A stretch of 64,000 nt of DNA from assembly GCA_919902655.1 (NCBI GenBank), contig CAKKRL010000162.1, positions 251 to 64,250 on the forward strand, in the 5' to 3' direction. This DNA comes from Thermodesulfovibrionia bacterium (lineage in GTDB: Bacteria; Nitrospirota; Thermodesulfovibrionia; JACRGW01). The notes beneath the pieces are model-generated. The model worked only from the letters and a program-made list of their open reading frames with translations. It was not told where the DNA came from and searched no databases. Each line of letters begins with the position of its first letter. Position 1 is the first letter of the stretch. Both the position numbers and the translations under genes were made by a program. Of this stretch, positions 20,974 through 60,665 are shown in pieces.

Positions 20974-21864
20974 CTACAGCGCCCTCTCTGCCTTTATAAC
21001 CACCTGACTCGCCATGGAAGGGAACGTTTCCCCTATAAGACACAGGAACATGAATATCCTTCTGTAAATTGTCTTATTCCTGGAATATAGATTGTTCAGG
21101 AAGTGATTCGATACAAGGTTCAACTCAACTGAAACAGGGCTGACAAACCCCCTCTTCGGTCTTTTCCTTTTGATTACTGCATAAAAGACCCTCGGTATAA
21201 CAGCTATTGATTTTGGTATTCTCACCCTTAATTTAAATCCTATCCCTTTTATCCCTGCCGTTTTAAAACCTGTTTTTCTCAGAAGGGATTTCAGCCTCCT
21301 CGGTGAGAATGTATGGAGGTGTTGATCCTTCAATATCTCACCTATATTATTTTCATAAAATAAGGGCGACGGCGTAGAGATGATCAGTGTACCACCTCTT
21401 TTTAGAACATGGTTGGAAGATGAGAGAAATCTCTCAGGTTCTATAAGGTGTTCTATAATCTCTGACGCTACGACATAATCAAAACACTCTCCCCTGAAAG
21501 GTAATTCCTCTGCATTTCCTACAACAAAATGTCCATTTTTATATGTTTCAGCACACCTCTTTATCCTCTCCAAGGAGATATCGAGAGCAGTCATCGCTTT
21601 TGCATCTTTCAGTAATAACCCGGCAAGTACTCCGTCGCCAGTACCGGCATCAAGAATATCCTTACCCGGAGAAATCATCAATTTTATCTCTCTCATCTGA
21701 CCTTCATACATTACCATAAATCTTGTAGGGTCTTTCACCTCATGCCCATCGGTTCCGTACTGCTCCAAGAGTATTGAGGTTGCTGCTCCATAGCGGCTAC
21801 TGTATTCGTAGAACTCTCTCAAGCGTTTTCTGATATTATCTTCTCCGAAGGATCCTGTGGACAA
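20974..21864 (-). CDS. Class I SAM-dependent methyltransferase
   Basis: ILDAGTGDGVLAGLL motif I. Confidence 0.7.
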   Translation of the reverse strand: MSTGSFGEDNIRKRLREFYEYSSRYGAATSILLEQYGTDGHEVKDPTRFMVMYEGQMREIKLMISPGKDILDAGTGDGVLAGLLLKDAKAMTALDISLERIKRCAETYKNGHFVVGNAEELPFRGECFDYVVASEIIEHLIEPERFLSSSNHVLKRGGTLIISTPSPLFYENNIGEILKDQHLHTFSPRRLKSLLRKTGFKTAGIKGIGFKLRVRIPKSIAVIPRVFYAVIKRKRPKRGFVSPVSVELNLVSNHFLNNLYSRNKTIYRRIFMFLCLIGETFPSMASQVVIKAERAL

Positions 21865-27057: not shown

Positions 27058-27058
27058 A

Positions 27059-35089: not shown

Positions 35090-36166
35090 TTGTTACTACT
35101 CAGAATCGCAGATATAAACCTTCTCTTTAAGTCTGATCTCAAAGGGCTAAAGATCGGCTATCCTCAAAAGAATTTTATTCATTCCACATTCCCTCAATCC
35201 TCTCCCCAAAAGGGAGTGGAGGCAAAAAAGAAAGTCCCCTCTCCCCAACGGGGAGAGGGTCAGGGTGAGGGGGAAATTATTGACTGCACCATATCTATAG
35301 AACACCACCCTCTACCCTTTAATATTAAAGATAAAGAGATCTTCAGCCATGCAGGACCCTGGAAACTTTTCAGGAACAGAAAAGGTTATAAGATTGCCTT
35401 CTTTTTCCCCGCTTTAAAGCCTGATTATTACATGCTTGCAGAATTTAAAAGGGATTTCTCAAGGGTAAGACTATATATAAAAGACGCGGATCTTCGCTAC
35501 GCTCAGAATGACAAGCGAAGGGCTCAGAATGACAACAAGAAGACCTTTATTATTTCCCATCCCCTTGACCAGCTTTTAGTCATCAACCTCCTCTCCCGTG
35601 GCAGAGGAGTAATGATACACTCCTGTTGTGTCAATGATAACGGAAGGGGTTTCCTTTATGCCGGGACATCTCGCTCTGGCAAGAGTACGACTGCGAAACT
35701 CTGGTTAAAGCAGACAAAACCCTCCGAATCCCCCCACACCCCACTTTGGAAAAGGGATAATCCCCCTTCCTCCCCCTTTATTAAAGGGGGAATAGAGGGG
35801 GATTTTAAAGATATGACAGGAGTGAAGGTTTTAAGCGATGACAGGATTATAATCAGAGAGTTTGATGATAAGATCTATGCCTATGGCACACCCTGGCATG
35901 GGGAGGTAAATGTCTGTGATCCTGGAAGGGTGGAGATAGAAAGGATATTCTTCCTTCAACACTCGACGAAAAACTATGTGAAGTCACTTCCTCCTGTGGA
36001 TGCAGCAACGAGGATGTTTGTCAGATGCTTCCCCACCTTCTGGGATAAGGAAGGTATGGCATTTACACTGAAATTCATAGATGAGGTGGTCAGGAAAGTC
36101 CCCTGCTATGAATTCGGATTCGTGCCGGATAAAAGTGCGGTCAATTTCGTTAGAGGGCTTCGCTGA
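35090..36166 (+). CDS. HPr kinase/phosphorylase-like P-loop kinase (HprK-related). Its N-terminal region carries three in-frame repeat-element insertions. The start is uncertain: the track lists TTG at 35090, and the first ATG is at about 35432.
   Basis: P-loop LYAGTSRSGKST (HprK Walker A pattern G-x-S-G-x-GKS) plus downstream DDRII…GTPWHGE. Repeat families A, C and B lie in frame. Confidence 0.5.
   Translation: MLLLRIADINLLFKSDLKGLKIGYPQKNFIHSTFPQSSPQKGVEAKKKVPSPQRGEGQGEGEIIDCTISIEHHPLPFNIKDKEIFSHAGPWKLFRNRKGYKIAFFFPALKPDYYMLAEFKRDFSRVRLYIKDADLRYAQNDKRRAQNDNKKTFIISHPLDQLLVINLLSRGRGVMIHSCCVNDNGRGFLYAGTSRSGKSTTAKLWLKQTKPSESPHTPLWKRDNPPSSPFIKGGIEGDFKDMTGVKVLSDDRIIIREFDDKIYAYGTPWHGEVNVCDPGRVEIERIFFLQHSTKNYVKSLPPVDAATRMFVRCFPTFWDKEGMAFTLKFIDEVVRKVPCYEFGFVPDKSAVNFVRGLR
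35190..35281. repeat. Palindromic repeat family A, copy 1 (tccctcaatcctctcccc … cccctctcccc aac ggggagaggg … gggtgaggggg), in frame in the HprK-like ORF
   Basis: Shares the core CCTCAATCCTCTCCCC…GGGGAGAGG with copies at 36449-36500 and 50519-50562. Confidence 0.6.
35501..35540. repeat. Repeat family C, copy 1: tandem gctcagaatgacaa(gcgaag)ggctcagaatgacaa, in frame in the HprK-like ORF (encoding AQNDKRRAQNDNK)
   Basis: A near-identical arrangement at 52165-52205 (ggactcggaatgacaagcaaaggactcagaatgacaa) is intergenic. Confidence 0.55.
35726..35808. repeat. Repeat family B, copy 2, in frame in the HprK-like ORF (encoding …SPHTPLWKRDNPPSSPFIKGGIEGDFK)
   Basis: aatccccccacacccc…atcccccttcctccccctttattaaagggggaatagagggggatttt aligns with the reverse complement of 7861-7935. 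Confidence 0.55.
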
Positions 36167-36188
36167 ATAAGTGAGGACAGGCGAGACG

Positions 36189-36261
36189 CCTGTCCTACCA
36201 ATACGGATGACGAAACAAGGAAAAAGTAGGTCAGGCGTCTCGCCTGACAAAGTGGAATCGC
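36189..36261 (+). terminator. Pair of near-identical inverted hairpins (ggacaggcgagacgcctgtcc … gtcaggcgtctcgcctgac); terminator/attenuator-like
   Basis: Stems of 9 bp and 8 bp with 3-nt loops, about 40 nt apart. They are reverse complements of one another. Confidence 0.4.
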
Positions 36262-36276
36262 TCAATTTAGGTTAAT

Positions 36277-36831
36277 ATGAAACCCGACCTCCAGACTATA
36301 ACATCCATAATCCTTGATGAAGGATACTATGCTGCTTTACCCACAATAGGCCCATCTATGTACCCTGTTATTAGAGCAGGCGACAAAATCTATGTTGAAT
36401 CCCTTATGGGAAGGACGCCTGAAACTGGAGATATTGTACTCTTTAAATCCCCCTCACCTCAATCCTCTCCTCTACGAGCCATGGCCCCAAGGGGAGAGGA
36501 AGTAAGTGTAGAGTCCTCTCTCTCTAATAGAGAAGAAGTAATTATGGTATGCCACAGGCTTCTGAAGATATTCAAGAAGGATGGTACTACTTATTATCAA
36601 ACAAGAGGAGATGCCTATTTCTATAAAGACATACCTATAACATATGACCAGATTATCGGAAGGGTTGTAAAGGTTGAACGGTCTGTAGTATCTTTGCCAA
36701 GGAAGATCCTTTTGACTTTAAACCCCTTCTTAGGAAAATTTACCATACTGAATGCAGCTATAATTACTGTATTGGTATGGATTAAAAAGGCTTTAGTAAA
36801 AAATAACCATTTGTTTATCGGTTATTTTTAG
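36277..36831 (+). CDS. S24/S26 (signal peptidase I / LexA-like) serine peptidase-fold protein with a C-terminal TM helix and a repeat-encoded insertion
   Basis: PTIGPSMYPVIRAGDKIYVE (the GxSMxP nucleophile region of S26/S24). Insertion …SPSPQSSPLRAMAPRGEEVSVESS… is encoded by repeat family A. Confidence 0.45.
   Translation: MKPDLQTITSIILDEGYYAALPTIGPSMYPVIRAGDKIYVESLMGRTPETGDIVLFKSPSPQSSPLRAMAPRGEEVSVESSLSNREEVIMVCHRLLKIFKKDGTTYYQTRGDAYFYKDIPITYDQIIGRVVKVERSVVSLPRKILLTLNPFLGKFTILNAAIITVLVWIKKALVKNNHLFIGYF
36449..36500. repeat. Repeat family A, copy 2, in frame in the S26-like ORF (encoding SPSPQSSPLRAMAPRGEE)
   Basis: ccctcacctcaatcctctcc…ggggagagga. Same reading frame (PQSSP) as copy 1. 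Confidence 0.55.
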
Positions 36832-37749
36832 TTACTGGGAATGTATATCTTCTTCTGATACAAGAGAGATTATATAGAGCAGAGGGTTCTCTTTAAGATT
36901 TATTTTTCTCCTTGTCGCAGGCTTACGGCCCTGTGGATCAAACAGGATCTCTACAGCCGGTCTGAATGGGGAAATGCTATCGGTGGATACAACAATCGCA
37001 ATCTCCTTAGAATTCAGTCTAACTATAGTGCCTACAGGGAAGACAGGAAGTTTGGACATAAGTGCCTTTATAACCTTCTCGGGAAAAGAGGCCCTCTCGG
37101 CTGAAAGGATCTCTTTCATGGAATCGAAGGGAGGAAGATTCTTTCTCTGGAACCTGTGATGGGTAAGCGCCTCATAGACATCGGCTATCCCTATAATGAG
37201 GGCAAACTCATGGATCTCATTGCCCTTGAGCCCTTTCGGATAACCTCTCCCGTTAAACCTCTCATGCTCCTGAAGGATGATCTCTGAAATCCAGAGATTA
37301 TCTTCGCTGAATTTATTCAGAATCTTTACTCCCTCTTCAGGGTGTCTCTTCACGGTATCAAACTCTTCATCATTTAACTTCCCCGGCTTTTTAATGATAT
37401 TTTCAGGAACACCAGCCATACCGATGTCGTGGATGATGGCAGCAAGGCCTAACCTCTCAAGGTCATCCCTGTTATAATTAAGCGCTATACCTATCTCGGT
37501 TGCGAATATACAGACATTCAAGAGATGTGATGGGAGATCAAAACCCTTTGTCTTTGAATACAGGGCCCTTCTGACAAGGTGATCCCCTGCAAAAAGACTA
37601 TCAACAATCCCGGATATAACCTCGGAGACAGGGTTTAGAGAAAAAGATTTACCTTTCTTAACATCCTGAAAAATCTTCTCTATCTGATCTCTGCCATTCT
37701 CATAAAGAGCCGTTTCGATATTCTCCTCCTCTTGGACCTTTATTATCAC
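36832..37749 (-). CDS. HD-GYP domain phosphohydrolase (putative c-di-GMP phosphodiesterase)
   Basis: HDIGM…, H-D pair, and HHERFNGRGYPKGL (GYP motif). Confidence 0.75.
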   Translation of the reverse strand: MIIKVQEEENIETALYENGRDQIEKIFQDVKKGKSFSLNPVSEVISGIVDSLFAGDHLVRRALYSKTKGFDLPSHLLNVCIFATEIGIALNYNRDDLERLGLAAIIHDIGMAGVPENIIKKPGKLNDEEFDTVKRHPEEGVKILNKFSEDNLWISEIILQEHERFNGRGYPKGLKGNEIHEFALIIGIADVYEALTHHRFQRKNLPPFDSMKEILSAERASFPEKVIKALMSKLPVFPVGTIVRLNSKEIAIVVSTDSISPFRPAVEILFDPQGRKPATRRKINLKENPLLYIISLVSEEDIHSQ

Positions 37750-37827
37750 TTCGGTACTAATTCCCTCCTGCTAAAATTAAGTATTTGTTAATAATAAATA
37801 TCATTTTGGTCATTTTGTCAAGTTTTT

Positions 37828-38790
37828 TTAGACCCTTACGGATTTTTTATCAATATTTATCTTTTTCATAAAATAGTCCAGCGTATTGGAAAGCCCCTCT
37901 CCGAGGCTGACCTGTGGCTCCCATCCCAGCAGGGATTTTGCCTTTGAAATGTCAGGTTGCCTTACCTTCGGATCGTCTTCAGGCAGGGGTTTAAAAACTA
38001 TTCGGCTCTTGCTTCCTGTAATGCTTATTATCTCCTCAGCCATTTTAAGAACTGACATCTCTTCGGGGTTTCCGATATTCACCGGTGTATCCACATCGGA
38101 GTGTAGGAGGCGATATATACCATCAACCATATCGTCTATGTAGCAGAAACTCCTTGTCTGGGAGCCGTCTCCAAAGACAGTTATATCTTCTCCTCTTAAT
38201 GCCTGAACCATAAATGTGGGAATTGCCCTTCCGTCATTCAGTCTCATCCTCGGGCCATAGGTATTAAATATCCTGACTATCCTTGTCTCAACACCATGGT
38301 AACGGTTGTATGCCATGGTAATTGCCTCTGCAAATCTCTTTGCCTCGTCATAGACACCCCTTGGGCCTATAGGATTTACATTTCCCCAGTAATCCTCCCG
38401 CTGGGGGTGGATCAGAGGGTCTCCATAGACCTCAGATGTAGATGCCAGGAGGATCCTCGAACCTTTTGCCTTTGCAAGACCCAGCGCTTTATGTGTTCCG
38501 AGAGAACCTACCTTAAGGGTCTGTATAGGTAGCGAATGATAATCTATCGGACTTGCCGGACTTGCAAAATGGAGTATATAATCCACATTCCCTTCAACAT
38601 AGATATAGTTTGTAACATCATAGTGGATAAATGAAAACCTCTTATCCCTGATATGCGAGATATTAGCCACATCCCCGGTGATAAGATTATCCATACAGAT
38701 AACCTCATAATCTTCTAAGAGGAATCTATCAGCAAGATGGGAGCCTATAAACCCTGCCCCTCCTGTTATTAGAACCCTTCCTTTAATCAT
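37828..38790 (-). CDS. UDP-glucuronate decarboxylase / UDP-xylose synthase-like NAD-dependent SDR
   Basis: [12 protein letters not shown] Rossmann motif and the YDEAKR catalytic motif. Overall similarity to UXS/ArnA-C. Directly downstream of ugd. Confidence 0.7.
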
Positions 38791-40091
38791 TTCCCCCTCC
38801 CTACCCCTGTATATCTTATACCCATCTCCTTCATTTTCTTTGGGTCGTAAATATTCTTGAGATCTATTACCACAGGCTTCTTCAGGAGACTCTTTATCTT
38901 ATTTATTTCAAGATTTCTGAACTGATTCCACTCAGTAATGATTACGAGTGCATCAGACCCATCTGCCACCCCGTAAGGGTCATTACAGTACTCTATATCA
39001 TCGAGGAACTTCTTTGCCTCCTCCATTGCTGCGGGGTCGTATGCCCTGATCTTTGCCCCCTCCTTCTGAAGACCCTTTATTATGGAGACCGATGGTGCGT
39101 CCCTCATATCATCCGTATTCGGTTTAAATGAGAGGCCCAGGATACCTATCCTTTTATCCTTCAATTCTCCGGTTTCCTTCTTTATCTTCTCTACCATAAG
39201 TGCCCTCTGTCTCTTATTCACCTTTATAACGGCCTTTACTATCTCAAAGTCATAACCATGTTCCTTGGCTATATTCACTATGGCAGATGTGTCCTTCGGG
39301 AAGCAGGAACCTCCGAATCCAGGGCCCGGATGAAGGAATTTTGTCCCGATCCTGTTATCATGGCCCATCCCCTTCGCTACCATATGGACATCTGCCCCGA
39401 CCCTCTCGCAGATATTTGCAATCTCGTTAATAAATGACACCTTTGTTGCCAGGAAGGCATTTGATGCATACTTTATCATCTCGGCCGTCTTGATGTCTGT
39501 AACTATAAAGGGGGTCTCTATAAGGTAAAGGGGAGCGTAGAGGTCTCTCATTATAGCAATCGCATGGTCGCTCTCGGCGCCGATTACTACCCTGTTCGGC
39601 CTCATGAAATCCTCTATGGCAGATCCTTCCCTCAGGAACTCGGGGTTGGATACTATATCAAAGTCTACCTTCTCCTTCTGTTTCTCCCCTATGATCTTTC
39701 TTATCTTCTCACCTGTTCCAACAGGCACTGTACTCTTTGTGACTATCACCTTATATCCATTCATGTTCTCTGCAATACTGTGTGCAACCGCCTCCACATA
39801 GGAAAGATCAGCAGAGCCATCCTCCATTGAAGGCGTACCTACAGCTATAAAAATACCGAGCGATCTTTTTACAGAACCGGCAAGGTCTGTGGTAAAGGAA
39901 AGTCTCCCGTCTTTAATGTTCCTCTTTACAAGTTCCTCAAGGCCCGGTTCGAATATAGGTATAATCCCATTAGAAAGGTCTTTTATCTTCTTTTCATCTT
40001 TATCAACACCGACGACCTTCAGTCCGAATTCTGCAAAGCAGGCCCCTGTTACCAGACCTACATAACCCGTTCCAACAACACAGATGTTCAT
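38787..40091 (-). CDS. ugd: UDP-glucose 6-dehydrogenase
   Basis: [24 protein letters not shown]-terminus and the catalytic GGSCFPKD. The track ORF extends 14 codons upstream to 40133; the true start is probably 40091. Confidence 0.85.
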
Positions 40092-40948
40092 AGTGAAACC
40101 CTTTCTCCATAATCCCTCAGCGTCTCTTCCCATTTCCTCATCCTGTATCCAGTCAGCTTAAAATATCTGTCATTGCTCAATACAGAATATGAAGGCCTCT
40201 TCGCAGGTCTTTTCAGCTCACCGGATTTTATCGGTATAACATTCACGCCCTTTATCCCCTTTATTCTTATTATCTCTTTCGCAAAATCATACCAGGAACA
40301 TTCCCCTGAATTACTGCAATGGACAATACCCGCTGCATCTGAATCAATCAACCTCTCTATTGATTCTGAGAGGTCTACAGTATAAGTGGGTGAGCCTGTC
40401 TGGTCATCCACAACCCTTATTTCATCTTTTTCATTCGATAACCTCAGGATCGTATCAACAAAATTCCTTCCGTTTTTACCGAAGAGCCATGAGGTCCGTA
40501 TAATAAGAGTCTGGAGTCTGGAGTCTGGAGTCTGAAGTCTGGAGATTTCCTGCTCTCCTTCAAGTTTGGACTGTCCGTATATATTTATTGGCCTTGGCTC
40601 ATCATCCTCTTTATATGGTTCCTTCTTCTCTCCGTTAAAGACATAATCTGTACTGATGTGTATGAACCTTGCATTCACTTCATAACATCCTGTTGCCACA
40701 TTTCTCGCCCCACCCCTGTTCACTTTAAATGCCACTTCCCTCTCTGTCTCGCAGGCATCAACATCTGTGAATGCAGCAGTATTTATAACAAGTTCGGGAA
40801 TTATTTTTTTTATTCCCCTTATAGTCTCTGCCTCGTCCGTAATATCGAAATCTTCAACATCAACACCTTTTACATCATTCTTTATAGAAAGCCTTTTTAC
40901 AAGATCAGTTCCAAGCATCCCCTTTGCACCTGTCACAAGAATCCTCAT
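40088..40948 (-). CDS. rfbD: dTDP-4-dehydrorhamnose reductase
   Basis: MRILVTGAKGMLG…, …RTSWLFG…, and a C-terminal pattern typical of RfbD. Contains an in-frame heptamer-repeat insertion (EISRLQTPDSRLQT). Confidence 0.8.
   Translation of the reverse strand: MRILVTGAKGMLGTDLVKRLSIKNDVKGVDVEDFDITDEAETIRGIKKIIPELVINTAAFTDVDACETEREVAFKVNRGGARNVATGCYEVNARFIHISTDYVFNGEKKEPYKEDDEPRPINIYGQSKLEGEQEISRLQTPDSRLQTLIIRTSWLFGKNGRNFVDTILRLSNEKDEIRVVDDQTGSPTYTVDLSESIERLIDSDAAGIVHCSNSGECSWYDFAKEIIRIKGIKGVNVIPIKSGELKRPAKRPSYSVLSNDRYFKLTGYRMRKWEETLRDYGERVSL
40508..40550. repeat. Tandem heptamer (GAGTCTG)x5 within rfbD, in frame
   Basis: gagtctggagtctggagtctggagtctgaagtctggag read directly. Translates on the minus strand to EISRLQTPDSRLQT. 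Confidence 0.7.
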
Positions 40949-40950
40949 AA

Positions 40951-41035
40951 TTTAGTCTATCAGTCAACAGTCTATAGTCGACCAGTAGATTGAAAGACTG
41001 CTGACTGCCGACTCAAGACTGATTTGCACCAGTCC
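40951..41035. repeat. Long hairpin built from tandem heptamers (cagtcta/cagtcaa …) and their complements (agactgc/tgactgc…) at the rfbD/rfbB junction
   Basis: tagtctatcagtcaacagtctatagtcgaccagtagattgaaagactgctgactgccgactcaagactgat. Overlaps the 3' end of rfbB. Confidence 0.6.
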
Positions 41036-41970
41036 TGATTTTCCTTATACCACCCGATTGTCTTCTCCATAGCCTCATCAAAATTATTAACCGGCCTCCA
41101 CCCCAATTCCCTTTCGGCCTTTGTTGAGTCAAGGGCATAGCGCCTATCATGGCCCGGTCTATCCTGGACATAAGTTATCAGGGATTCAGGCTTATCAAGC
41201 ATCCTCAGGATCATCTTCGCAATCCCAATGTTGTTCTTCTCGTTCACGCCACCAATATTATAGACCTCACCATCCCTTCCCTTGTGGAAGACTATATCTA
41301 TAGCCCTGCAGTTATCCTCTACATATATCCAGTCCCTTACATTCATACCATCACCGTAGAGGGGCACCTTCTCATCGGCTATAGCCTTCATAATAAAGAG
41401 TGGGATTAGTTTTTCTGGATACTGGTATGGACCGAAGTTATTCGAGGAACGGGTTATTAAAACAGGTAGTCCGTATGTCTTATGATAAGCCCTTGCAAGA
41501 TGATCGCCTGCCGCCTTCGATGCGGCATACGGGCTATTAGGCATAAGAAGGCTCTCTTCTTTGAATGTCCCTGACGGACCTAAAGAACCATAGACCTCAT
41601 CAGTTGAAACCTGAAGAAAGCGGGGTATTTTTCTCCTCCTTGCAACCTCAAGCAGTATCTGCGTCCCGAGTACATTTGTTTTAACAAATATGGAAGGGTC
41701 GAGGATAGATCTGTCCACATGGGTTTCGGCAGCGAAGTTTAATATCCCGTCACAATCTCCTGCTAAATCCGTTAAAAGGTCATAATCGAGGATATCACCC
41801 TTTACAAATGTATAACTGGAATTCTTCGATATATCCTCAAGATTTTTCAGGCTACCTGCGTATGTAAGTAGATCAAGGTTGATTATCTTGTAATCAGTGC
41901 GGGTAGAAAGGAGATACCTTACAAAGTTAGAACCTATAAAACCACACCCCCCTGTTATCAGTAACTTCAT
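40972..41970 (-). CDS. rfbB: dTDP-glucose 4,6-dehydratase
   Basis: MKLLITGGCGFIGSNFVRYLL…YAASKAAGDHL (YxxxK). Confidence 0.85.
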   Translation of the reverse strand: MKLLITGGCGFIGSNFVRYLLSTRTDYKIINLDLLTYAGSLKNLEDISKNSSYTFVKGDILDYDLLTDLAGDCDGILNFAAETHVDRSILDPSIFVKTNVLGTQILLEVARRRKIPRFLQVSTDEVYGSLGPSGTFKEESLLMPNSPYAASKAAGDHLARAYHKTYGLPVLITRSSNNFGPYQYPEKLIPLFIMKAIADEKVPLYGDGMNVRDWIYVEDNCRAIDIVFHKGRDGEVYNIGGVNEKNNIGIAKMILRMLDKPESLITYVQDRPGHDRRYALDSTKAERELGWRPVNNFDEAMEKTIGWYKENQDWCKSVLSRQSAVFQSTGRL

Positions 41971-42000
41971 TTTAATTATCGAAGACCCGACCTATAGGGC

Positions 42001-42065
42001 GGATTTTGGATTTTGGATTTTGGATTTTAAATCTCCAATCCGCAATCTGAAATCCAAAATTGATA
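42001..42065. repeat. (GGATTTT)x4 tandem heptamers followed by their complementary arm (aaatctc caatccg caatctg aaatcca aaat), at the rfbB/rfbC junction
   Basis: Read directly. Confidence 0.65.
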
Positions 42066-42521
42066 TTATCCATCCTTCCTTTCCCAGTTGTATGGAATAT
42101 CTTTTGTACGGGGGTCGATCCTGAACTCATCGGGTTCTCCGTAGTTATATGGCACTGTAGGACAGTTAATTACTATTGACTCAGTCTCACCTGTTCCCTT
42201 GAACCCATGAAGTACATAAGGTGGTATCTGGATAAGAAGCGGGTTATGTTCTCCGATAAAGAATTCGTTCAGCTCACCCTTTGTCGGGGATTCCTCCCTC
42301 GGATCATAGAGGACAAGTTTTATCACACCTTTCACACAAACAAAATTATCCACTTGTTTCTTATGATAATGCCAACCTTTTACAACTAAAGGATAGACTG
42401 TAGTCATATAGATCTGTCCGAACTTAATAAACAACTCGTCATCGGCCCTCAGCATCTCCATAAGCCTCCCCCTCTCATCAGGGATGACCTTTAGCTTTTT
42501 TATTTTAACTCCGTCTATCAT
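42066..42521 (-). CDS. rfbC: dTDP-4-dehydrorhamnose 3,5-epimerase (cupin)
   Basis: …IPDERGRLMEM…GWHYHKKQ… pattern of RmlC. Confidence 0.8.
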   Translation of the reverse strand: MIDGVKIKKLKVIPDERGRLMEMLRADDELFIKFGQIYMTTVYPLVVKGWHYHKKQVDNFVCVKGVIKLVLYDPREESPTKGELNEFFIGEHNPLLIQIPPYVLHGFKGTGETESIVINCPTVPYNYGEPDEFRIDPRTKDIPYNWERKDG

Positions 42522-42525
42522 ATTA

Positions 42526-42562
42526 GTTCACTGTTCACTGTGAACGGTTCACAGTGAATTAT
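42526..42562. repeat. Perfect 12-bp palindrome (ttcactgtgaac g gttcacagtgaa) preceded by an extra tcactgt heptamer, at the rfbC/rfbA junction
   Basis: Read directly. Confidence 0.6.
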
Positions 42563-42565
42563 TTT

Positions 42566-43630
42566 CTATAGCACCCCCACCTTGCTATAATCCCCTAACA
42601 TAAATCTATATGCCTTCGGCTTAAGAGGCGATTTAGAGACTTCAACATCCCTTCCTATTAGACTATCCCCTATCCTCCCTTTGATATTCATTATAGAGCT
42701 CCCCTCAAGGACGATGCTGTGTTCCACCTCACTCTCTTTTATTGTAACCCTGTCTGCAATTGAGGTAAAGGGACCGATAAAAGAATTTATTATCTTTGAT
42801 CCCTTCCCTATTATTGCCGGCCCCCTTATAGTGCTCTTTGTAACCTCTGCATCCTTTTCGATAACCACCTTGAAGTCTACCTTTGATTCATCATCTACCA
42901 AACCATCAATTCTGGTATCAAGGGTGTCAAGGACCATCTTATTCGCCTCAAGAAGGTCATCGAGCCTTCCTGTATCCTTCCACCATCCCTTCACCATATG
43001 AGGATGAACCACATACCCTTTGTCTATCAGATACTGAATTGCATCTGTTATCTCCAGTTCATTCCTCCATGAAGGTTTTATATTCTTAACAGCCTCAAAG
43101 ATATGTGAATCAAACATGTAAACCCCTACAAGTGCGAGATCACTTCTGGGGTCCCTTGGTTTCTCAACAAGCCTCACAACCCTTCCGTTCTGAAGCTCTG
43201 CCACTCCGAACTGGTTCGGGTTCTGTACCCTTGAGAGAAGGATATGACAGTTAGGTGATACCTCCTTAAACTCCTTCACCAGTTCCTTTATGCCTCCGAG
43301 GATAAGATTATCTCCAAGATACATAACAAAGGGTTCGTCCTTAAGGTATCCCTGGGATACGAGGACAGCATGTGCAAGCCCTGCAGGTTCTGCCTGCTCA
43401 ATATAGGTTATACTTACATTCCAGTCACTGCCATCCCCTACAGCCCTCCTGACCTCTTCCTTTGTATCGCCAACGACTATACCTATATCCTTTATCCCGG
43501 CATCCCTCAGCGCCTCAATACCATAAAAGAGTACAGGTTTATTCGCAATCGGTATAAGCTGTTTCGCACTCGTAAAGGTTATGGGTCTGAGTCTTGTACC
43601 TTTACCGCCGCTAAGGATTAATCCTTTCAT
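42566..43630 (-). CDS. rfbA: Glucose-1-phosphate thymidylyltransferase (long form with a C-terminal LbH domain)
   Basis: MKGLILSGGKGTRLRPITFTSAKQLIPIANKP… N-terminus. Confidence 0.8.
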   Translation of the reverse strand: MKGLILSGGKGTRLRPITFTSAKQLIPIANKPVLFYGIEALRDAGIKDIGIVVGDTKEEVRRAVGDGSDWNVSITYIEQAEPAGLAHAVLVSQGYLKDEPFVMYLGDNLILGGIKELVKEFKEVSPNCHILLSRVQNPNQFGVAELQNGRVVRLVEKPRDPRSDLALVGVYMFDSHIFEAVKNIKPSWRNELEITDAIQYLIDKGYVVHPHMVKGWWKDTGRLDDLLEANKMVLDTLDTRIDGLVDDESKVDFKVVIEKDAEVTKSTIRGPAIIGKGSKIINSFIGPFTSIADRVTIKESEVEHSIVLEGSSIMNIKGRIGDSLIGRDVEVSKSPLKPKAYRFMLGDYSKVGVL

Positions 43631-45776
43631 ATCCCCCCATGGAAAACGATGCCAGTTTCATCGACCCGAGCCCTTTAAGGTCAACACTCAAGAGTACCTG
43701 AGTTTCTTCCGGCCTGCCAATATATAAAAGTGTAACTGCCCAGCACTGAGAGGTATAAGTCCCTCTCAGGTCGACCTCAAGGAACTTTTTCTGTGTAGCA
43801 TCATACCACACCTTTCCGGAAAGGTCTAACGATTTAAATAACCTTACGCTTCCCTCGGCAGTAAGAAATAAGGCCTCAGGTATCTTCGTATATCTTTCGT
43901 CAATAGAAAAATACCAGGGTGTATCCCCCCTTAAGGTAAGGGTCGTATTGAATGAAGTCATATAACCACTGTAGGGGTTATAGGTTGCACCTGTATTGAA
44001 TTTTAAGAACTCTGTGGTCCTGAACATGGCCTCCATTGTTATATCGGAAAGAGGCTCATCTCCCTTATCAAAATCATAGTCCTGGCTAAGTTTCAATGTA
44101 ACGAACTCATAGATTCTCTTTCTCTTTTCGTCTTCTAATTTCCCGATAAGGCGGTTCGTCAAGGAGTAAGTCACTTTATTTGTCTGTTGTATGAAATCAA
44201 TACCATCGAACTGAGGAAGATTATACTGATTGACTTCCGGGATGTATGTATAACTGATAGAAGGCTCTATAGAGTGTTTTACCTTGCTCATCCCTCCTAA
44301 ACCATCGACTTCAAAGATCCTGAACATCTTGGTACCTATAGAAGCACCCAAATCATAAATCCCCTTATCAGTAATGTCTCCGTCTACCAGATATGCCCTT
44401 TCCCTGAACCCGGCCCTTGGAGATAAAACGAATCCGCTTCCAAGATTAAGTGCTGAGGAAAGCTGGGGATAGATATTCAACCTCTGACCTGTCATCCCTT
44501 CCTTCCTCCAGAAGTTTATCGCAGTAGTTTCATGGGTAAAATAAAGCGGTAGCTTTCCGACCTTGTAATTTGTAAGGACATAGCCAGCTTCAGGAAGTTT
44601 CTGGAGGGTACCCGCATTACTCTGGGTAAGGTCCTGCCTGTACTGATTAAGGATATAGAGCCTGCTTGTTTGCCAGTTCTGGCTTAAAAGGAAATTTGAT
44701 TCGAGTGCCCTCTGGACTCTTTCCTCTGTTACTGTACTGAATCTCTGATAGTATGCAGGCTCACTCAGATAGTATATATTCGCCTTTCCCTGCAGCCGTT
44801 TTGTTATCTGGTGATCATGGTTGTACCTCAGAACCCAGTAATCCTGCCCTACCTCCTTATCCTTCATGTAATAATTATAGAGTTCGCCCCTCGCATCCTT
44901 GTTCAGGATATACCTGTATTCAATTCCGCCACCAAAACCTATCTTTCCCCTGTAATCGAGGTAATATGTGGAATCCATATTATCTGCCATGACCCAGTAA
45001 AAGGCGTTCTGCAGGATGAAACCATTCTGGTTGCTGTAACCTATCCTCGGAAGAAGAAAGCCTGTCTGCCTATCCTTCTTTATCGGCACCTTTATGTATG
45101 GCGTATAGAGACATGGCACATCCTTAATATAGAAAACCACATCCCTGCCTACGATATTATCGTTAAGCTGGACCCTTACATCCTTACCCCTGAACCTCCA
45201 TGGTGGCACAAGGGCATCACATGTTGTGAAGGAACCACTTCTGATCTCGTAGACGTCCTCACCCACCTTCTCCATTTCATCCCCTTCGATATGGTAATTA
45301 TCAGGACGTTGAAAGATCCTTCCCTTGTAGATAACACCAAGCTTTGTATTTACATTCATTTCAACTTCATCTGCTATAAGTATGCTGTCCGCCTCTTCAT
45401 ACCATACATTCCCTGTGGCCAGGGCATCACCGCTACTGTTATCCAGAATTGCATAGTCGGATTCCATATGTGTCCCATCCTGTGTTATCTTCACCGAACC
45501 CCATGCCTCGTATGTATCTGTGTCTTTATAATATTCGATATGATCTGCCTCTATTGTTACGGGGGTATCGCTGTCCGCTTTTTTGGGGTCCTTACGTTTC
45601 TTCTCCTCTTTTAGTGCAGTATCTTCAACTTTCTTCTCCTGTTTAGCCTGAGGGGTTGGACCTTTATCTTCAACCTGAACTTCCTTAACCTTCTCCTCCC
45701 CATAGAGTGAACATGGAAATCCTGCAAGAACCACAACTGCAAAGCCTATTATAATCCATTTACATTTCTCCCCCAA
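43611..45776 (-). CDS. lptD: LPS-assembly protein LptD (OstA/Imp) outer-membrane beta-barrel
   Basis: Signal peptide, an N-terminal OstA-like beta-jellyroll region and a ~500-aa aromatic-rich beta-barrel region. Confidence 0.6.
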   Translation of the reverse strand: MGEKCKWIIIGFAVVVLAGFPCSLYGEEKVKEVQVEDKGPTPQAKQEKKVEDTALKEEKKRKDPKKADSDTPVTIEADHIEYYKDTDTYEAWGSVKITQDGTHMESDYAILDNSSGDALATGNVWYEEADSILIADEVEMNVNTKLGVIYKGRIFQRPDNYHIEGDEMEKVGEDVYEIRSGSFTTCDALVPPWRFRGKDVRVQLNDNIVGRDVVFYIKDVPCLYTPYIKVPIKKDRQTGFLLPRIGYSNQNGFILQNAFYWVMADNMDSTYYLDYRGKIGFGGGIEYRYILNKDARGELYNYYMKDKEVGQDYWVLRYNHDHQITKRLQGKANIYYLSEPAYYQRFSTVTEERVQRALESNFLLSQNWQTSRLYILNQYRQDLTQSNAGTLQKLPEAGYVLTNYKVGKLPLYFTHETTAINFWRKEGMTGQRLNIYPQLSSALNLGSGFVLSPRAGFRERAYLVDGDITDKGIYDLGASIGTKMFRIFEVDGLGGMSKVKHSIEPSISYTYIPEVNQYNLPQFDGIDFIQQTNKVTYSLTNRLIGKLEDEKRKRIYEFVTLKLSQDYDFDKGDEPLSDITMEAMFRTTEFLKFNTGATYNPYSGYMTSFNTTLTLRGDTPWYFSIDERYTKIPEALFLTAEGSVRLFKSLDLSGKVWYDATQKKFLEVDLRGTYTSQCWAVTLLYIGRPEETQVLLSVDLKGLGSMKLASFSMGGYERINP

Positions 45777-45777
45777 A

Positions 45778-47148
45778 TCACACCCTCAGCCTCTCCACAT
45801 CCATACCGAATCCTTTAACCTCTCCCACAGTATATAGGGAGCCTGTAATACATATAAGATCCCGACTGCCTGCTTTACCCATTGCATACTCAATGGCCTC
45901 GTTTACTCCCTTTATAGCCATTACATTCGGATTAAACGCCTCTGCCTCAACCGCAAGAGATTCAGGTGAAGCAGCCCTCTCATAGTCCACTGTTGTCACT
46001 ATCACCTCAGATGCAATGGGTGCAAGGACCCTGAGGAATCCCCTTACATCCTTATCCTTCATCATACCTACTATCAAAAATAACCTACCGTGCCCGGGGA
46101 GAAATATCTCTTCAAGTGATTTCTTAAGAGAACGTGCGGCTCCTTCATTATGTGCACCATCGAGGATAACTGTTGGGTTTCTGGATATTATTTCGAGCCT
46201 CCCGTCCCACCTGGCCTCTTTAAGTCCCTTCCTTACCATCTTCTCTTCTATTTTAATTTCATTACCGATTACCTCTGTAGTAGCAACTGCCAGTGAGGCA
46301 TTCGTTATCTGATGTGCACCTAACAGAGGAATTTCAAGACCTTGGTATATCTTTTTTATTCCATAATAATCAAAGACTTGAGTCTGGAGTCTGGAGTCTG
46401 GCCCGCCTTGCTTCTCCGTAGGATCCTGTGGAGCGGAGCGAGGCCGGGGAGCCTGGAGTCTTGAACCCTCTGTCCTAAAATCCCTTCCTGATATATATAG
46501 TTTAGACCCCATATCTTTACATTTATCTTCTATCAACTGCCTGACCTCAGGCAGATTATCTGCCATAACAACAGGGATTCCCTCCTTTATGGTTCCTGCT
46601 TTCTCTATCGCTATCTCGGGAAGGGTTACACCGAGGAATTCCTGATGGTCATAACCGATATTTGTTATAACAGAAACCAAAGGGGTTATCACATTCGTAG
46701 CATCGAGCCTTCCACCCATACCTACCTCTATTACTGCTATGTCAACATCTTCTTCTGCAAAGTATTTAAAGGCAATTGCTGTGGTAAATTCGAAAAAAGT
46801 GGGTGTAATACATTTGATATTTGAGATTTGAGATTCGAGATTCAAAGTCATCTCTGACACCCTTTCTTCCTCAATCGGCATACCGTTTACCCTTATCCTT
46901 TCTGTAAAGCTTACAAGGTGTGGTGAGGTATAAAGGCCAACCTTCATTCCTGAACCCTTAAGTATAGATGCAATCATTACTGCGGTTGATCCTTTACCAT
47001 TTGTCCCGGCAATATGGATTGATTTAAATCGCCTATGGGGATTCCAGAGGATACCCATCAAAGAGAGTGTATTATCCAGTCCTAACTTTATCCCGTATTT
47101 CTGCAGACTGTAAAGGTAATCAACCGCCTCTTTATAACCCATACACAC
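45778..47148 (-). CDS. folC: Bifunctional folylpolyglutamate synthase / dihydrofolate synthase
   Basis: HIAGTNGKGSTAVMIASILKGSG P-loop and Mur-ligase-like layout. Carries two in-frame tandem-repeat insertions. Confidence 0.8.
   Translation of the reverse strand: MCMGYKEAVDYLYSLQKYGIKLGLDNTLSLMGILWNPHRRFKSIHIAGTNGKGSTAVMIASILKGSGMKVGLYTSPHLVSFTERIRVNGMPIEEERVSEMTLNLESQISNIKCITPTFFEFTTAIAFKYFAEEDVDIAVIEVGMGGRLDATNVITPLVSVITNIGYDHQEFLGVTLPEIAIEKAGTIKEGIPVVMADNLPEVRQLIEDKCKDMGSKLYISGRDFRTEGSRLQAPRPRSAPQDPTEKQGGPDSRLQTQVFDYYGIKKIYQGLEIPLLGAHQITNASLAVATTEVIGNEIKIEEKMVRKGLKEARWDGRLEIISRNPTVILDGAHNEGAARSLKKSLEEIFLPGHGRLFLIVGMMKDKDVRGFLRVLAPIASEVIVTTVDYERAASPESLAVEAEAFNPNVMAIKGVNEAIEYAMGKAGSRDLICITGSLYTVGEVKGFGMDVERLRV
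46374..46475. repeat. Composite element in folC: (GAGTCTG)x3, then a GC-rich palindromic core, then ctggagtct; in frame (encodes SRLQAPRPRSAPQDPTEKQGGPDSRLQT)
   Basis: Read directly. Same heptamer and the same reading frame as the rfbD copy. Confidence 0.6.
46806..46850. repeat. Tandem heptamers (atttgag/attcgag) in frame in folC (encodes LNLESQISNIK)
   Basis: tttgatatttgagatttgagattcgagattcaaagtc read directly. Confidence 0.5.
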
Positions 47149-47241
47149 CCCCGAAAAGCTGAAGTTTTTTTATCACATTCAGGTTATTATGTCAAGGATA
47201 TTGACAAAAAACCTCATTTATGGTTAACCTTCTTTTTAACG

Positions 47242-50373: not shown

Positions 50374-50568
50374 CTACTCACGGCATGGCAGTTCGCCGCG
50401 AGGCCTTCCTTGTTTTATCAGACGACACAAGCACCTTAAATTACTTCCCCTCCGATTTCGAATCAATCAACCTGTTGAAATAGTCCTCTTTTGTCACCCA
50501 AATTCATTTCATGGTCTTATCCCCTCACCTTCATCCTCTCCCCTTAGGGGAGAGGGGTGGGTATGAGC

Positions 50569-52179: not shown

Positions 52180-52205
52180 GCAAAGGACTCAGAATGACAA
52201 TCAAG
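52165..52205. repeat. Repeat family C, copy 2 (intergenic)
   Basis: ggactcggaatgacaagcaaaggactcagaatgacaatcaagg. Confidence 0.5.
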
Positions 52206-52206
52206 G

Positions 52207-55626: not shown

Positions 55627-55712
55627 AGAGTAAGGGATCAAGGATTCAAGGGGTCAAGGGGTTAAGTATCTCACTTGAACCCTCGATTCCTCGAACCCTT
55701 GAATTCTTTTCC
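55625..55712. repeat. Long imperfect hairpin built from four tandem octamers (GGATCAAG GATTCAAG GGGTCAAG GGGTTAAG), a loop, then the complementary octamers
   Basis: Read directly, immediately after the fabH stop. Period-8 direct repeats on each arm. Confidence 0.6.
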
Positions 55713-55751: not shown

Positions 55752-56909
55752 ATGGATTATTTTTTAACAGATGCACAGAAGACAATTCGCGACATTGCAA
55801 GAAAGATAGCAATTGAGAAGGTAGTTCCTTCAAGGGCTGAACTTGATGAGAAAGAGGAATTCCCCCATGAAATAATGAAGGCCCTTGCCCAGGCAGATCT
55901 GTTCGGACTTTATATACCCGAGAAGTATGGTGGTTTCGGCGGAGGAAGCATCGATCTTGCCCTTGCTGTGGAAGAATTGAGCTCTGCCTGTCTCGGCGTT
56001 TCAACCACTTTTGCTGCAAATGCACTTGCTGCATATCCCGTCCTCCTCTTTGGCAGCGAAGAACAGAAAAAGAGCTTTCTTCCGGATATAGCATCAGGAA
56101 AGAAACTTGCTGCATTCGGTCTTACAGAGGCTGGTGCAGGCAGCGACGCAGCGGCCATCCAGACTACAGCAAAAAAAGAAGGCGATGAATATATCCTTAA
56201 TGGCACTAAACAATGGATTACAAATGGTGGAGAGGCAGAAATCTATACCATAATAGCAATGACAGATAAATCCAAAGGGACTCGCGGTGCCTCAGCATTT
56301 ATCGTGGAAAAAGGGACTCCAGGATTTAGTTTCGGTAAGAAGGAGAAGAAGATGGGAATAAGGGCCTCAGCAACAAGGGAATTGGTCTTTGAAAACTGCC
56401 CTGTTCCGAAGGAGAACCTCCTCTCCAAAGAGGGGATGGGTTTTATCGTAGCAATGAGAACACTCGATATCTCAAGAGTAGGTATAGGCGCACAGGGGGT
56501 TGGCCTTGCACATGGGGCCCTCGATGAAGCAGTAAAATATGCAAGAGAAAGACATCAGTTCGGCAAGCCCATTATATCTTTCCAGGCCATACAGCACATG
56601 CTTGCAGATATGGCCATATTGACAGAATCAGCAAGGGCGCTAGTCTATTCTACTGCACGTGTCATTGACAGCGGTTCTAAGGAGTATTCTAAGGAGTCCG
56701 CTATGGTTAAAGTATTTGCTTCGGATGTAGCGATGAAGGTAGCAACAGACGCAGTCCAGATCTTCGGGGGTTATGGCTATATGAGGGAATACCCTGTTGA
56801 GAAGATGATGAGAGACGCAAAGATCCTTCAGATATATGAGGGAACAAACCAAATACAGAGAAATATTATCGGTCAGGCACTGATAAAGGAAGCAGCGAGC
56901 AAAAAATAG
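55752..56909 (+). CDS. Acyl-CoA dehydrogenase family protein (FAD-dependent), inserted between fabH and fabD
   Basis: 385 aa. Typical ACAD layout: …GLTEAGAGSDAAA…, …YEGTNQIQR… C-terminus. Confidence 0.85.
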   Translation: MDYFLTDAQKTIRDIARKIAIEKVVPSRAELDEKEEFPHEIMKALAQADLFGLYIPEKYGGFGGGSIDLALAVEELSSACLGVSTTFAANALAAYPVLLFGSEEQKKSFLPDIASGKKLAAFGLTEAGAGSDAAAIQTTAKKEGDEYILNGTKQWITNGGEAEIYTIIAMTDKSKGTRGASAFIVEKGTPGFSFGKKEKKMGIRASATRELVFENCPVPKENLLSKEGMGFIVAMRTLDISRVGIGAQGVGLAHGALDEAVKYARERHQFGKPIISFQAIQHMLADMAILTESARALVYSTARVIDSGSKEYSKESAMVKVFASDVAMKVATDAVQIFGGYGYMREYPVEKMMRDAKILQIYEGTNQIQRNIIGQALIKEAASKK

Positions 56910-56960
56910 TCTTTAGTCAGCAGTCGGCAGTCAGTAGCAAAGAAAAATAAAAAATAAAAA
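56909..56960. repeat. Tandem heptamers (agtcttt agtcagc agtcggc agtcagt), then (aaaaat/aaaaaat)x3 between the ACAD and etfB genes
   Basis: Read directly. Confidence 0.45.
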
Positions 56961-57746
56961 ATGAATATAATCGTCTGCATAAAACAGGTACCTGATACCT
57001 CTGAGGTAAGGATAAACCCTGAGACAAACACCCTTATCAGGGAAGGCGTCCCCTCTATTGTTAACCCCTTTGATATGTATGCCATAGAGGAGGGATTAAG
57101 GATAAAGGAAATGATAGGTGGGAAGGTAACTGCCATTTCAATGGGCCCCCCTCAGGCATTGGAGGCACTTAAAGAGGCATTCTCCCTCGGTGTGGATGAG
57201 GTAATTCTTATCTCTGATCGTGCCTTTGCAGGTTCGGACACACTGGCAACATCCTATACACTATCAAAGGCTATAGAGAAGATCGGCCTCTTCGACATTA
57301 TCCTCTGCGGGAAACAGGCTATTGACGGCGATACAGCACAGGTAGGTCCTGAACTTGCTGAACATCTCGGAATCCCTTTTGTTACCTCTGTGAAAAAGAT
57401 AGATGAGATACGAGAGGGCTACCTCAGGGTCCACAGGATGATGGAAGATGGATATGATGTGATAGAGACCAGACCTCCGGCGCTTCTCACCGTCGTGAAA
57501 GAGATCAATGAACCAAGACCTCCTTCACTTAAAAGAAAAATACAGGCAAAAAACCTCCAGGTACCTGTCTGGAGAAAGGAAGATCTGGATGTAGATGAAA
57601 AGAGGCTCGGCCTTAAAGGGTCTCCTACACAGGTATTAAGGATCTTTCCTCCTGAGATAAAGGGTGAGAGGAAAATCCTTGAGGGTAATCTGGAAGAACA
57701 GATATATAAACTTGTATCAGAACTGAAGGGTCTGGGCATACTTTGA
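56961..57746 (+). CDS. etfB: Electron transfer flavoprotein beta subunit
   Basis: MNIIVCIKQVPDTSEVRINPETNTL N-terminus. Confidence 0.85.
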   Translation: MNIIVCIKQVPDTSEVRINPETNTLIREGVPSIVNPFDMYAIEEGLRIKEMIGGKVTAISMGPPQALEALKEAFSLGVDEVILISDRAFAGSDTLATSYTLSKAIEKIGLFDIILCGKQAIDGDTAQVGPELAEHLGIPFVTSVKKIDEIREGYLRVHRMMEDGYDVIETRPPALLTVVKEINEPRPPSLKRKIQAKNLQVPVWRKEDLDVDEKRLGLKGSPTQVLRIFPPEIKGERKILEGNLEEQIYKLVSELKGLGIL

Positions 57747-60590: not shown

Positions 60591-60665
60591 TATAAGTTTA
60601 AGGTTTAGAGTTTAGAGTTAGTAGTTTGATTTTTTAACTTTCGACTTTGAACTTTTAACTTTTAC
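60590..60665. repeat. Two blocks of tandem heptamers (gtttaga gtttaga gttagta gtttgat / aactttc gactttg aactttt aactttt) in the fabG-acpP intergenic region
   Basis: Read directly. Confidence 0.5.

Follow-up and report, generated by a model that had tools for sequence, protein, structure and literature searches.

What has filled every junction of one operon with a hairpin whose arms are built from tandem units of seven nucleotides, and do these hairpins serve the operon? This question is raised by the dTDP-rhamnose operon rml (rmlA-rmlC-rmlB-rmlD) in a 64,000-nt stretch of DNA from a Thermodesulfovibrionia bacterium (assembly GCA_919902655.1, contig CAKKRL010000162.1), which was analysed at its whole length and is referred to here as the window. 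An initial annotation, made from the sequence alone, had pointed out hairpins with heptamer-built arms at the gene junctions and had suggested REP-like transcript stabilisers, attenuators or recombination sites as possible identities. Pfam searches agreed with the gene identities and the gene order given there, and hairpins were indeed present at 3/3 junctions of the operon, which are designated J1 (rmlA-rmlC, with a gap of 44 nt), J2 (rmlC-rmlB, 95 nt) and J3 (rmlB-rmlD, 23 nt). The best explanation for the three elements is that they are members of a lineage-wide class, for which we use the term heptad-register hairpins.

Folding and lag analyses indicated a single architecture for all three elements, as had been proposed, namely imperfect stems with arms made of direct heptamer repeats. 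Read in the sense direction, every gap consists of an unbroken run of 7-nt units in which the orientation is reversed at some point along the way, and a single 7-nt register runs through the whole element, including its loop, which the initial annotation had not recognized. Because the units flip from the forward to the reverse-complement form, the two halves can pair. In J3 (41021 to 40952), the sense strand reads CAGTCTT GAGTCGG CAGTCAG CAGTCTT, two loop units and GACTATA GACTGTT GACTGAT AGACTAA, that is, four NAGTCNN units (41021-40994), two loop units (40993-40980) and four GACTNNN units (40979-40952). Its 5' arm is located in the final 16 codons of rmlB and encodes a C-terminal tail that is variable among relatives in the protein alignment, the stop codon of rmlB (40974-40972) falls inside the 3' arm, and the element ends 4 nt ahead of the ATG of rmlD. 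J2 consists of a degenerate 5' arm (TTTTGGA TTTCAGA TTGCGGA TTGGAGA), a loop of about 10 nt and a perfect 3' arm of four AAAATCC units, corresponding on the forward strand to the annotated fourfold GGATTTT repeat, which was found to be perfect at 42001-42028, and to a complementary arm, which is degenerate and reaches ~42063. Its stem of 20 bp is composed of helices of 11, 4 and 5 bp with 2-nt symmetric internal loops between them, and a threefold GGATT repeat was found nowhere in the 64-kb window except in J2. J1 reads ATTCACT GTGAACC GTTCACA GTGAACA GTGAACT, in which a palindromic double unit of 14 nt occurs 2.5 times. The inverted repeat described earlier in J1 was recovered, but its form was not that of the reported 12-bp palindrome: the main stem has perfect arms of 11 bp (42534-42544 and 42548-42558) and a 3-nt loop, and is preceded by GTTCACT x2. 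The palindrome GTTCAC-N-GTGAAC had no second copy in the 64-kb window and, across all DNA examined, was found solely at junctions flanking rmlC.

Comparison of RNA folds with those of shuffled sequences, a check that had been proposed, yielded z values of -5.95 for J3, -2.2 for J2 (-3.7 for its antisense strand) and -4.5 for J1, with fold energies of -40, -24.4 and -14.7 kcal/mol, respectively; for J3, folded as 40945-41045, 0/200 shuffles were equal. The best self-match lag was 7 in J3 (0.46), J2 (0.75) and J1 (0.51), with P<=0.0005 against shuffles in every case, and Tandem Repeats Finder (TRF) reported period 7 at 40953, 42001 and 42526. In the minimum-free-energy folds, the helices amounted to 24 bp in J3 and 20 bp in J2 and to only 11-16 bp in J1. 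All three elements were identical to those of the window in an independent assembly (L082) with a nucleotide identity of 99.6%, and they are therefore not assembly artefacts. The exact RmlB sequence of the window was also present in a public metagenome assembly, in which the contig ends inside the J2 array.

The heptamer phenomenon extended beyond the rml operon, throughout the window and the lineage, a feature that was not part of the initial annotation. The window contained 14 tandem runs of period 7, compared with an expectation of 1.1 derived from dinucleotide shuffles, an excess of about 13-fold, and the other periods gave 0-5 runs each, except for 8 runs at period 14 (2 x 7). Phased inverted cores, defined as a 4-mer core repeated at +7 with its complement repeated at +7 within 90 nt, formed three clusters against 0.27 expected, namely J3, J2 and 60594-60664; a 5-mer version of this test was too strict, and a strict gapless hairpin finder misses J3. 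Thus, the census against shuffled sequence, the lack of any enrichment in which had been named as grounds for refutation, revealed both heptamer runs and phased inverted cores to be enriched in the 64-kb window. The pattern AGTCNNN x3 alone matched 13 times against 0.19 expected, and the suspected kinship with in-frame heptamer arrays was substantiated by J3, which uses the AGTC/GACT unit family of the arrays in rmlD and in a Mur-ligase-family gene. Unidirectional arrays were confined to those in coding sequence and one at 56908; the other spacer arrays flip and pair. The hairpin between fabG and acpP, with a lag-7 match of 0.69, seven G-U pairs and fold energies of -22.6 kcal/mol for the sense strand versus -5.2 kcal/mol for the antisense strand, is the sole element with a clear RNA-strand signature.

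To follow the junctions through evolution, we compared them in ten syntenic lineages, in all of which (10/10) the order rmlA-rmlC-rmlB-rmlD was fixed. The nearest named relatives are metagenome-assembled genomes of Nitrospirota, with full synteny and an RmlB identity of 73%. The best lag was 7 in 21/24 junction spacers, and the fold had a z<-2 in 15/24. The 44-nt GTTCAC-N-GTGAAC element of J1 was common to the window, L092, L093 and L175, and L085 had a 30-nt version that was shorter by exactly one 14-nt double unit; among the five lineages, the hexamer cores were nearly invariant and every seventh base was variable. At the same junction, L083 had an unrelated hairpin (TAGACNN x4 / NNGGTCT x5), and L087, L088 and L174 had CAAAATN / TTTTGAN hairpins. 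The GGATT/AATCC hairpin of J2, with four units per arm, was common to the window, L086, L093 and L174, and its place was taken by GTTCAC-type elements differing in length by 21 nt in L083 and L092 and by G+C-rich hairpins in L085 and L175. J3 was nearly unchanged in L083 and L085, which differed from the window by only 2-5 substitutions there; L086, L087 and L174 each had a heptamer hairpin of their own overlapping the 3' end of rmlB, and a 130-300-nt insert replaced J3 in four lineages.

The density of period-7 runs per 100 kb was 14.1 in the window, 47.4 in the syntenic loci of nine relatives, 9.0 in 80 metagenome loci with an RmlC identity of 66-74% and 1.0 in 80 rmlB loci of other phyla, which were drawn from an RmlB search of genome contigs (relatives <=64% identical). 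The density in the lineage was thus about 10-45 times that in other phyla. Similarly, the relatives had seven phased inverted cores in 50 kb, all of period 7, and the other phyla had six in 792 kb with no preferred period. Most of the 80 metagenome loci had compact junctions of the Shine-Dalgarno type, and six had period-7 phased cores, four of which were directly beside rmlC (J1 of L095 and J2 of L115, L131 and L170); the remaining two were located inside a predicted upstream open reading frame (ORF) (L105) and ~1 kb upstream (L162). The junction hairpins are real, non-random and lineage-wide.

The alignments also showed, as the initial annotation had not, that the conservation of J1 and J2 goes well beyond that of silent sites and that these two elements, of the three, are under constraint. 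Third codon positions of rmlA, rmlC and rmlB in the window were 42-62% identical to those of the L086, L092 and L093 lineages, and the identity values were 0.85, 0.86 and 0.80 for J2 (among the window, L086 and L093) and 0.84, 0.70 and 0.82 for J1 between lineages. Conserved columns in J2 corresponded to the paired cores; variation fell in the apical loop and in the internal loops of 2 nt. Among the four orthologues (the window, L086, L093 and L174), pairing was kept in 91% of cells, compared with <=69% when the partners were slid, and double compensatory changes were seen in two pairs (UA to CG and GC to AU). Since J1 and J2 are far better conserved than silent sites, they probably act on the operon mRNA. 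Selection for pairing is suggested by the 70-86% identity of J1 and J2 versus 42-62% at third positions, by the location of the conservation in the paired cores and by the unidirectional nature of the arrays in coding sequence; we infer that the constraint acts on pairing in the polycistronic mRNA.

The origin of the units could be examined in the array within rmlD, which is 35 nt long and occupies the same codons at the same length in L083, L086, L088 and L092, with L093 being different. Its homogenised unit was CAGACTC in the window, GAAACTC in L083, CGACTCA in L088 and CAGACTT in L092; L085 shares the units of the window, those of L086 are degenerate, and the 99.6%-identical twin of the window differs by one unit variant. 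As judged from these sequences, this is concerted evolution of units under reading-frame and length constraint. A change by one unit would shift the frame of rmlD, so that phase variation is possible. Whole-unit insertions and deletions were also found in the spacers, of 14 nt in J1 and of 21 nt between the J2 elements of L083 and L092. The 3' arm of J2 in the window is perfect in all four units, and the 5' arm in the window and both arms in the orthologues are degenerate, suggesting that one arm was renewed alone with the unit count still at four. Taken together, the excess of period 7 in coding sequence as well as in spacers, the lineage-specific units at one fixed site in rmlD, the 14- and 21-nt steps and the single perfect arm of J2 show that a lineage-specific process which creates and homogenises 7-nt units operates here. 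Unit families were not synchronised between the loci of one genome. Templating in trans from a genome-wide master copy was rejected, given GAAACTC in rmlD of L083 versus CAAGACT/CCAGACT in its Mur-ligase-gene array, and so was GAGTC as the site of a nicking enzyme driving repeat synthesis, since most unit families are without GAGTC.

To account for these findings, we propose a composite explanation, which we hold with belief and doubt in about equal measure, in which the arms arise through the turnover of 7-nt units and the hairpins are retained in the mRNA by selection for pairing. A DNA-level process would make and homogenise 7-nt tandem units genome-wide, the simplest candidate being replication slippage with local unit conversion. 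In the spacers of co-transcribed genes, selection for base pairing would then balance forward and reverse arrays, and the stems would grow and be renewed in steps of 7 bp. The hairpins may fold the spacers of the rml mRNA away and make the translation of rmlC and rmlD dependent on the upstream ribosome. This proposal is based on the lack of a good Shine-Dalgarno duplex at rmlC (-4.1 kcal/mol, weak) and rmlD (-2.3 kcal/mol, no match), the median of the window being -6.3, and on the geometry of J3, the 5' arm of which lies in rmlB and the stem of which ends 4-5 nt before the AUG of rmlD. A ribosome finishing rmlB would have to open the J3 stem, which would be a classical translational-coupling arrangement, and a self-folding spacer would bring stop and start codons together. 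Alternatively or additionally, the stems may be for processing or 3' protection: about two helical turns of double-stranded RNA, with internal loops tolerated, as required of an RNase III substrate, are available in J2 and J3, and the window encodes RNase III (rnc, 62265-63005), so that both could be RNase III substrates. It is also conceivable, although we consider it doubtful, that a dedicated lineage-restricted mechanism other than generic polymerase slippage copies 7-nt units in both orientations and homogenises them, possibly shared with cyanobacteria and large sulfur bacteria, and that it builds self-pairing spacers used as tunable coupling or processing modules and makes in-frame arrays of the rmlD type into frame-shifting switches.

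Several findings weigh against selection for pairing in the mRNA and need to be considered together with the proposal that the hairpins are a neutral or selfish by-product, in which slippage and occasional strand-switch copying fill tolerant spacers with roleless hairpins because a self-folding insert does little harm. The sense fold was the stronger one in 9/16 elements and the antisense fold in 6/16, with 38 versus 29 G-U pairs, and without a consistent strand bias, selection at the RNA level is indistinguishable from symmetry at the DNA level. The L086 lineage has a rmlA-rmlC gap of 1 nt and no J1 element, and J1 is therefore dispensable. In 9/24 junction spacers, period 7 was kept and the fold was no better than that of shuffles, so that the periodicity, rather than the stem, is the more constant trait. 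The double changes in J2 were matched by 70/500 shuffles, indicating that covariation among the four sequences is not significant, and the identity of J1 and J2, as of repeat-rich spacers generally, is partly inflated by low complexity. A by-product would also fit the occurrence of the same periodicity in coding sequences without hairpins and the coming and going of other small palindromic inserts, some in frame inside genes, between genomes that are 97-99% identical. However, J1 and J2 are 70-86% identical where silent sites are near saturation, the paired cores are the conserved positions, and arrays in coding sequence are never inverted; moreover, slippage alone yields direct repeats and not balanced inverted arrays. 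We therefore regard a purely neutral origin as unlikely, while still taking it seriously.

The nearly invariant hexamer cores of J1, with a variable seventh base, and the restriction of its palindrome to junctions flanking rmlC could instead suggest DNA-level sites for proteins, such as the operators of a dimeric regulator (GTTCAC-N-GTGAAC of J1) or iteron-like arrays read in 7-bp steps. By eye, the half-site spacing of this palindrome appears unlike that of the parS, Rex and CRP/FNR consensus sites. A promoter scan of the window gave 11 sites versus 7.6 expected, without a signal above background at the junctions, including the J2 tail (41971..42000), and the sole junction match was rejected as it uses the ATG of rmlC as its -10 box. 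In Nostoc, deletions of heptamers near promoters changed NtcA and LexA effects (bioRxiv 10.1101/2022.06.06.494920), which speaks for binding sites. The units here are wholly different between junctions, and between lineages at one junction, so no single protein could read them all, and the elements are located inside an operon; protein binding is thus improbable. Mobile palindromes of the REP/REPIN type, landing in intergenic gaps by means of a RAYT-type transposase, would be extragenic, palindromic and found at gene 3' ends between co-transcribed genes, as these elements are, and such mobility could be read into the presence of the GTTCAC-type element at J1 in most lineages and at J2 in L083 and L092 and into the occurrence of the AGTC unit family at six loci in the window. 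Yet no multi-copy consensus palindrome was found in the 64 kb, every element has its own unit, the J1 palindrome is single-copy there, and a transposase was seen adjoining none of the elements among the part of the window ORFs that was annotated. Membership in a REP family is accordingly very unlikely, and the suggested role of REP-like transcript stabiliser is plausible only as an analogy of function, with the elements acting as RNA hairpins between cistrons. What look like replacements in L083 and L085 track imported divergent rmlC segments and are not insertions into a retained spacer. These two relatives were 97-99% identical to the window (36000-47200) over most of the locus, with divergent patches of 58-89% identity in the middle of the Mur-ligase gene, in rmlC with both junctions and in rmlD (extending into ugd in L085); the drop at rmlC starts ~200 nt inside rmlA and ends ~100 nt inside rmlB. 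As far as the alignments indicate, recombination importing divergent rmlC segments best explains the J1 and J2 replacements in L083 and L085. Sharp divergence against such a background would also be expected if the hairpins were recombination sites, as had been suspected, of an attC-like or cassette-boundary kind for shuffling rml genes, but identity breaks inside genes and not at the hairpins, and the gene order is fixed in ten lineages. Integron attC sites have R''/L''-L'/R' arms with RYYYAAC / GTTRRRY cores, variable cassettes and a nearby integrase; there is no integrase here, the units GTTCACN, AAAATCC and NAGTCNN contain no GTTRRRY core, and this possibility is hardly credible. Attenuators or terminators setting polarity within the operon fare equally poorly. 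The stems between the genes are stable and the antisense strand of J1 scores terminator-like; however, no sense-strand U-tract or terminator-like site was found at 40949-41040, 41971-42065 or 42522-42565, the bases following the three junction stems being AAAUU, GCCCUAUAGG and CAGUGAACUAAU, a leader peptide or an alternative antiterminator arrangement was not evident, and Rfam 15 gave no match at E<=1 on either strand of 40000-43700. Apart from these considerations, the cell-surface sugar genes of L083 and L085 are mosaic relative to those of the window, which looks like recombination.

In cyanobacteria, heptanucleotide repeats were already known in 1990, and they are statistically over-represented in many bacteria; bacterial heptanucleotide repeats as such are therefore not new. 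The STRR tandem heptanucleotide repeats were reportedly described by Mazel and co-workers in that year in Calothrix/Nostoc. In common with STRR-type repeats, the arrays here have at least three head-to-tail 7-nt copies, an excess of period 7 in the window and in the loci of relatives, and length and unit variation in close relatives; they also share with the cyanobacterial repeats the many units per genome, the intergenic excess and the frequent ending at or in a start codon. They are not purely direct, since the spacer arrays flip and pair. Nostoc PCC 7120 has heptanucleotide repeats including TTTTGAA and GACYAAT (PMC4692102; bioRxiv 10.1101/2022.06.06.494920), some near start codons with effects upon deletion (bioRxiv 10.1101/2022.06.06.494920), and the A/T-rich units TTTTGAT and TTTGAAC found here resemble TTTTGAA. 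Unlike STRR, which are not defined by paired inverted arrays, the arrays of this different phylum typically have a reverse-complement partner array in register with them, with which they form long stems at junctions inside operons, and orthologous elements can be traced across lineages. The TAACTGA direct repeats of Beggiatoaceae are likewise intergenic heptamer arrays, located in most cases a few bases ahead of a start codon, with a proposed post-transcriptional role and a patchy phylogenetic distribution (MacGregor 2015, PMC4679880). They comprise one dominant unit with 169 direct sets versus one inverted (PMC4679880), whereas the present lineage has numerous unit families, and its spacer arrays as a rule pair with an inverted partner. 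The GGGAATC heptamers of Xanthomonas lie between the same genes and vary in length and sequence in close relatives, some being inverted pairs that could fold into stem-loops (Rehm et al. 2015, PMC4692102); they are G-rich, have a single unit type and were studied as quadruplex formers (PMC4692102), and heptad-register hairpins at successive operon junctions are not described there. As far as that article relates it, Mrazek suggested that heptamers slip preferentially at the polymerase (cited in PMC4692102).

Junction hairpins of other kinds provide functional analogies. REP, BIME and REPIN elements of enterobacteria and pseudomonads are imperfect palindromes between co-transcribed genes, which can shield the mRNA upstream of them and cause the genes of an operon to be expressed at different levels. 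They are multi-copy with a genome-wide consensus and a RAYT transposase and without internal tandem periodicity, and their consensus and the absence of periodicity distinguish them from the junction hairpins. In phage T7, the early mRNA carries intercistronic hairpins at successive junctions that are processed by RNase III and have stems of ~20 bp or more interrupted by internal loops. J2 (20 bp) and J3 (24 bp) resemble these in stem length and in their position at successive junctions and would be candidates for such cleavage; unlike the T7 sites, they are built from tandem units. A full-text literature search found no description of heptamer repeats in Nitrospirae. The present case differs from the known ones in that spacers inside operons take the heptad-register hairpin as their standard form, in its many unit families, in an orthology that can be traced with conservation above that of silent sites, and in the phylum. 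The lineage is unusually readable, since the same junctions could be followed through ten lineages that display unit-step change, homogenisation of one arm and wholesale replacement by other heptamer hairpins. The mutational engine, which is the turnover of 7-nt units, can thereby be separated from the selective filter, which would be pairing in spacers and the reading frame in genes. These sequences also supply concrete elements in which coupled translation, cleavage by RNase III and phase variation in a pathway for cell-surface sugars could be studied.

Table 1. Genes of the rml operon, heptamer elements and related hairpins in the window.
Feature	Position	Strand	Evidence
rmlA (long-form glucose-1-phosphate thymidylyltransferase)	42566..43630	-	PF00483, E=2e-58
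J1 element	42525..42559	-	sequence, fold, orthologues
rmlC (dTDP-4-dehydrorhamnose 3,5-epimerase, short form)	42066..42521	-	PF00908
J2 heptad hairpin	42003..42060	-	sequence, fold, orthologues in L086, L093, L174
Non-repetitive J2 tail GCCCTATAGGTCGGGTCTTCGATAATTAAA, directly upstream of rmlB ATG	41971..42000	-	alignment; conserved with L086 lineage
rmlB (dTDP-glucose 4,6-dehydratase)	40972..41970	-	PF16363, E=5.8e-80
Small 10-bp hairpin CAGGACUGGU-GCAA-AUCAGUCUUG in rmlB 3' end	41016..41037	-	minimum-free-energy structure
J3 heptad hairpin	40952..41021	-	sequence; fold; best lag 7, P=0.0005
rmlD (dTDP-4-dehydrorhamnose reductase)	40088..40948	-	PF04321, E=9e-94
In-frame unidirectional array CAGACTT CAGACTC x4 in rmlD, encoding RLQTPDSRLQT	40507..40541	-	
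In-frame unidirectional CAGACTC array in Mur-ligase-family gene, split here by a 48-nt insertion	46374..46401	-	
Second in-frame heptamer array in Mur-ligase-family gene, GAATCTC/AAATCTC units	46810..46843	-	
8-nt-unit hairpin TCAAGGGG / CTCGAACC, fabH to acyl-CoA dehydrogenase gene	55632..55700	+	best lag 8
Direct-only arrays AGTCNGC x3 and AAAAATA x3, running into ATG of etfB-like gene	56908..56963	+	
Heptad hairpin between fabG and acpP, AGTTTNN facing NNNAACT units	60594..60664	+	fold, lag 7

The rml genes are preceded by lptD and the Mur-ligase-family gene and followed by genes for a UDP-glucose dehydrogenase and an epimerase. The small hairpin at the 3' end of rmlB adjoins J3 and falls in the span that the initial annotation had given to that element. 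The hairpin after fabH, with 27-nt arms and a fold energy of -35, represents a sister architecture at period 8. The 3' end of rnc lies within an AAATTNN heptamer array (62979-63005), in which the stop codon is part of a unit, and the next gene follows 3 nt on.

Several other repeats and inserts were observed in the window. A 21-nt dispersed element, TCCACAGGATCCTWCGGAGAA, was present in three copies against 0.01 expected, at 1229-1249 (+), 21841-21861 (-) and 46412-46432 (-). The third copy is part of the in-frame insertion of 48 nt that interrupts the heptamer array in the Mur-ligase gene, an insertion absent from L083 and L085. This recalls the small dispersed repeats that are reportedly found within cyanobacterial heptamer arrays, an observation said to be that of Elhai and colleagues in 2008. 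A palindromic element of 21 nt, CAGGCGAGACGCCTGTCCTAC, is present as two inverted copies in the spacer between co-directional genes at 36178-36246; both are missing from L083 (indels of 62 and 48 nt) and belong to a different, REP-like class of inserts. G+C-rich CCCCTCACC...GGTGAGGGG hairpins occurred at ~50519-50560 in the window, at ~4910-5000 in L085 and in a 75-nt insert in the Mur-ligase gene of L085, and one relative had an element of this type in frame within coding sequence and another at the rmlC-rmlB junction. A 21-nt unit, GGACTCAGAATGACAAGCAAA, appears twice at a gene end (52164-52206), and a related sequence is contained in a 117-nt insert between rmlD and ugd of L085. Between co-directional genes, 1044 nt (27058-28101) are without an ORF in the simple gene map and probably correspond to a gene that starts unusually or carries a frameshift. 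Finally, a hairpin with an unusual homopolymeric G/C stem (AGGAG15 ... C14TCCT; 18-nt arms, 4-nt loop) is located between convergent genes at 291-330.

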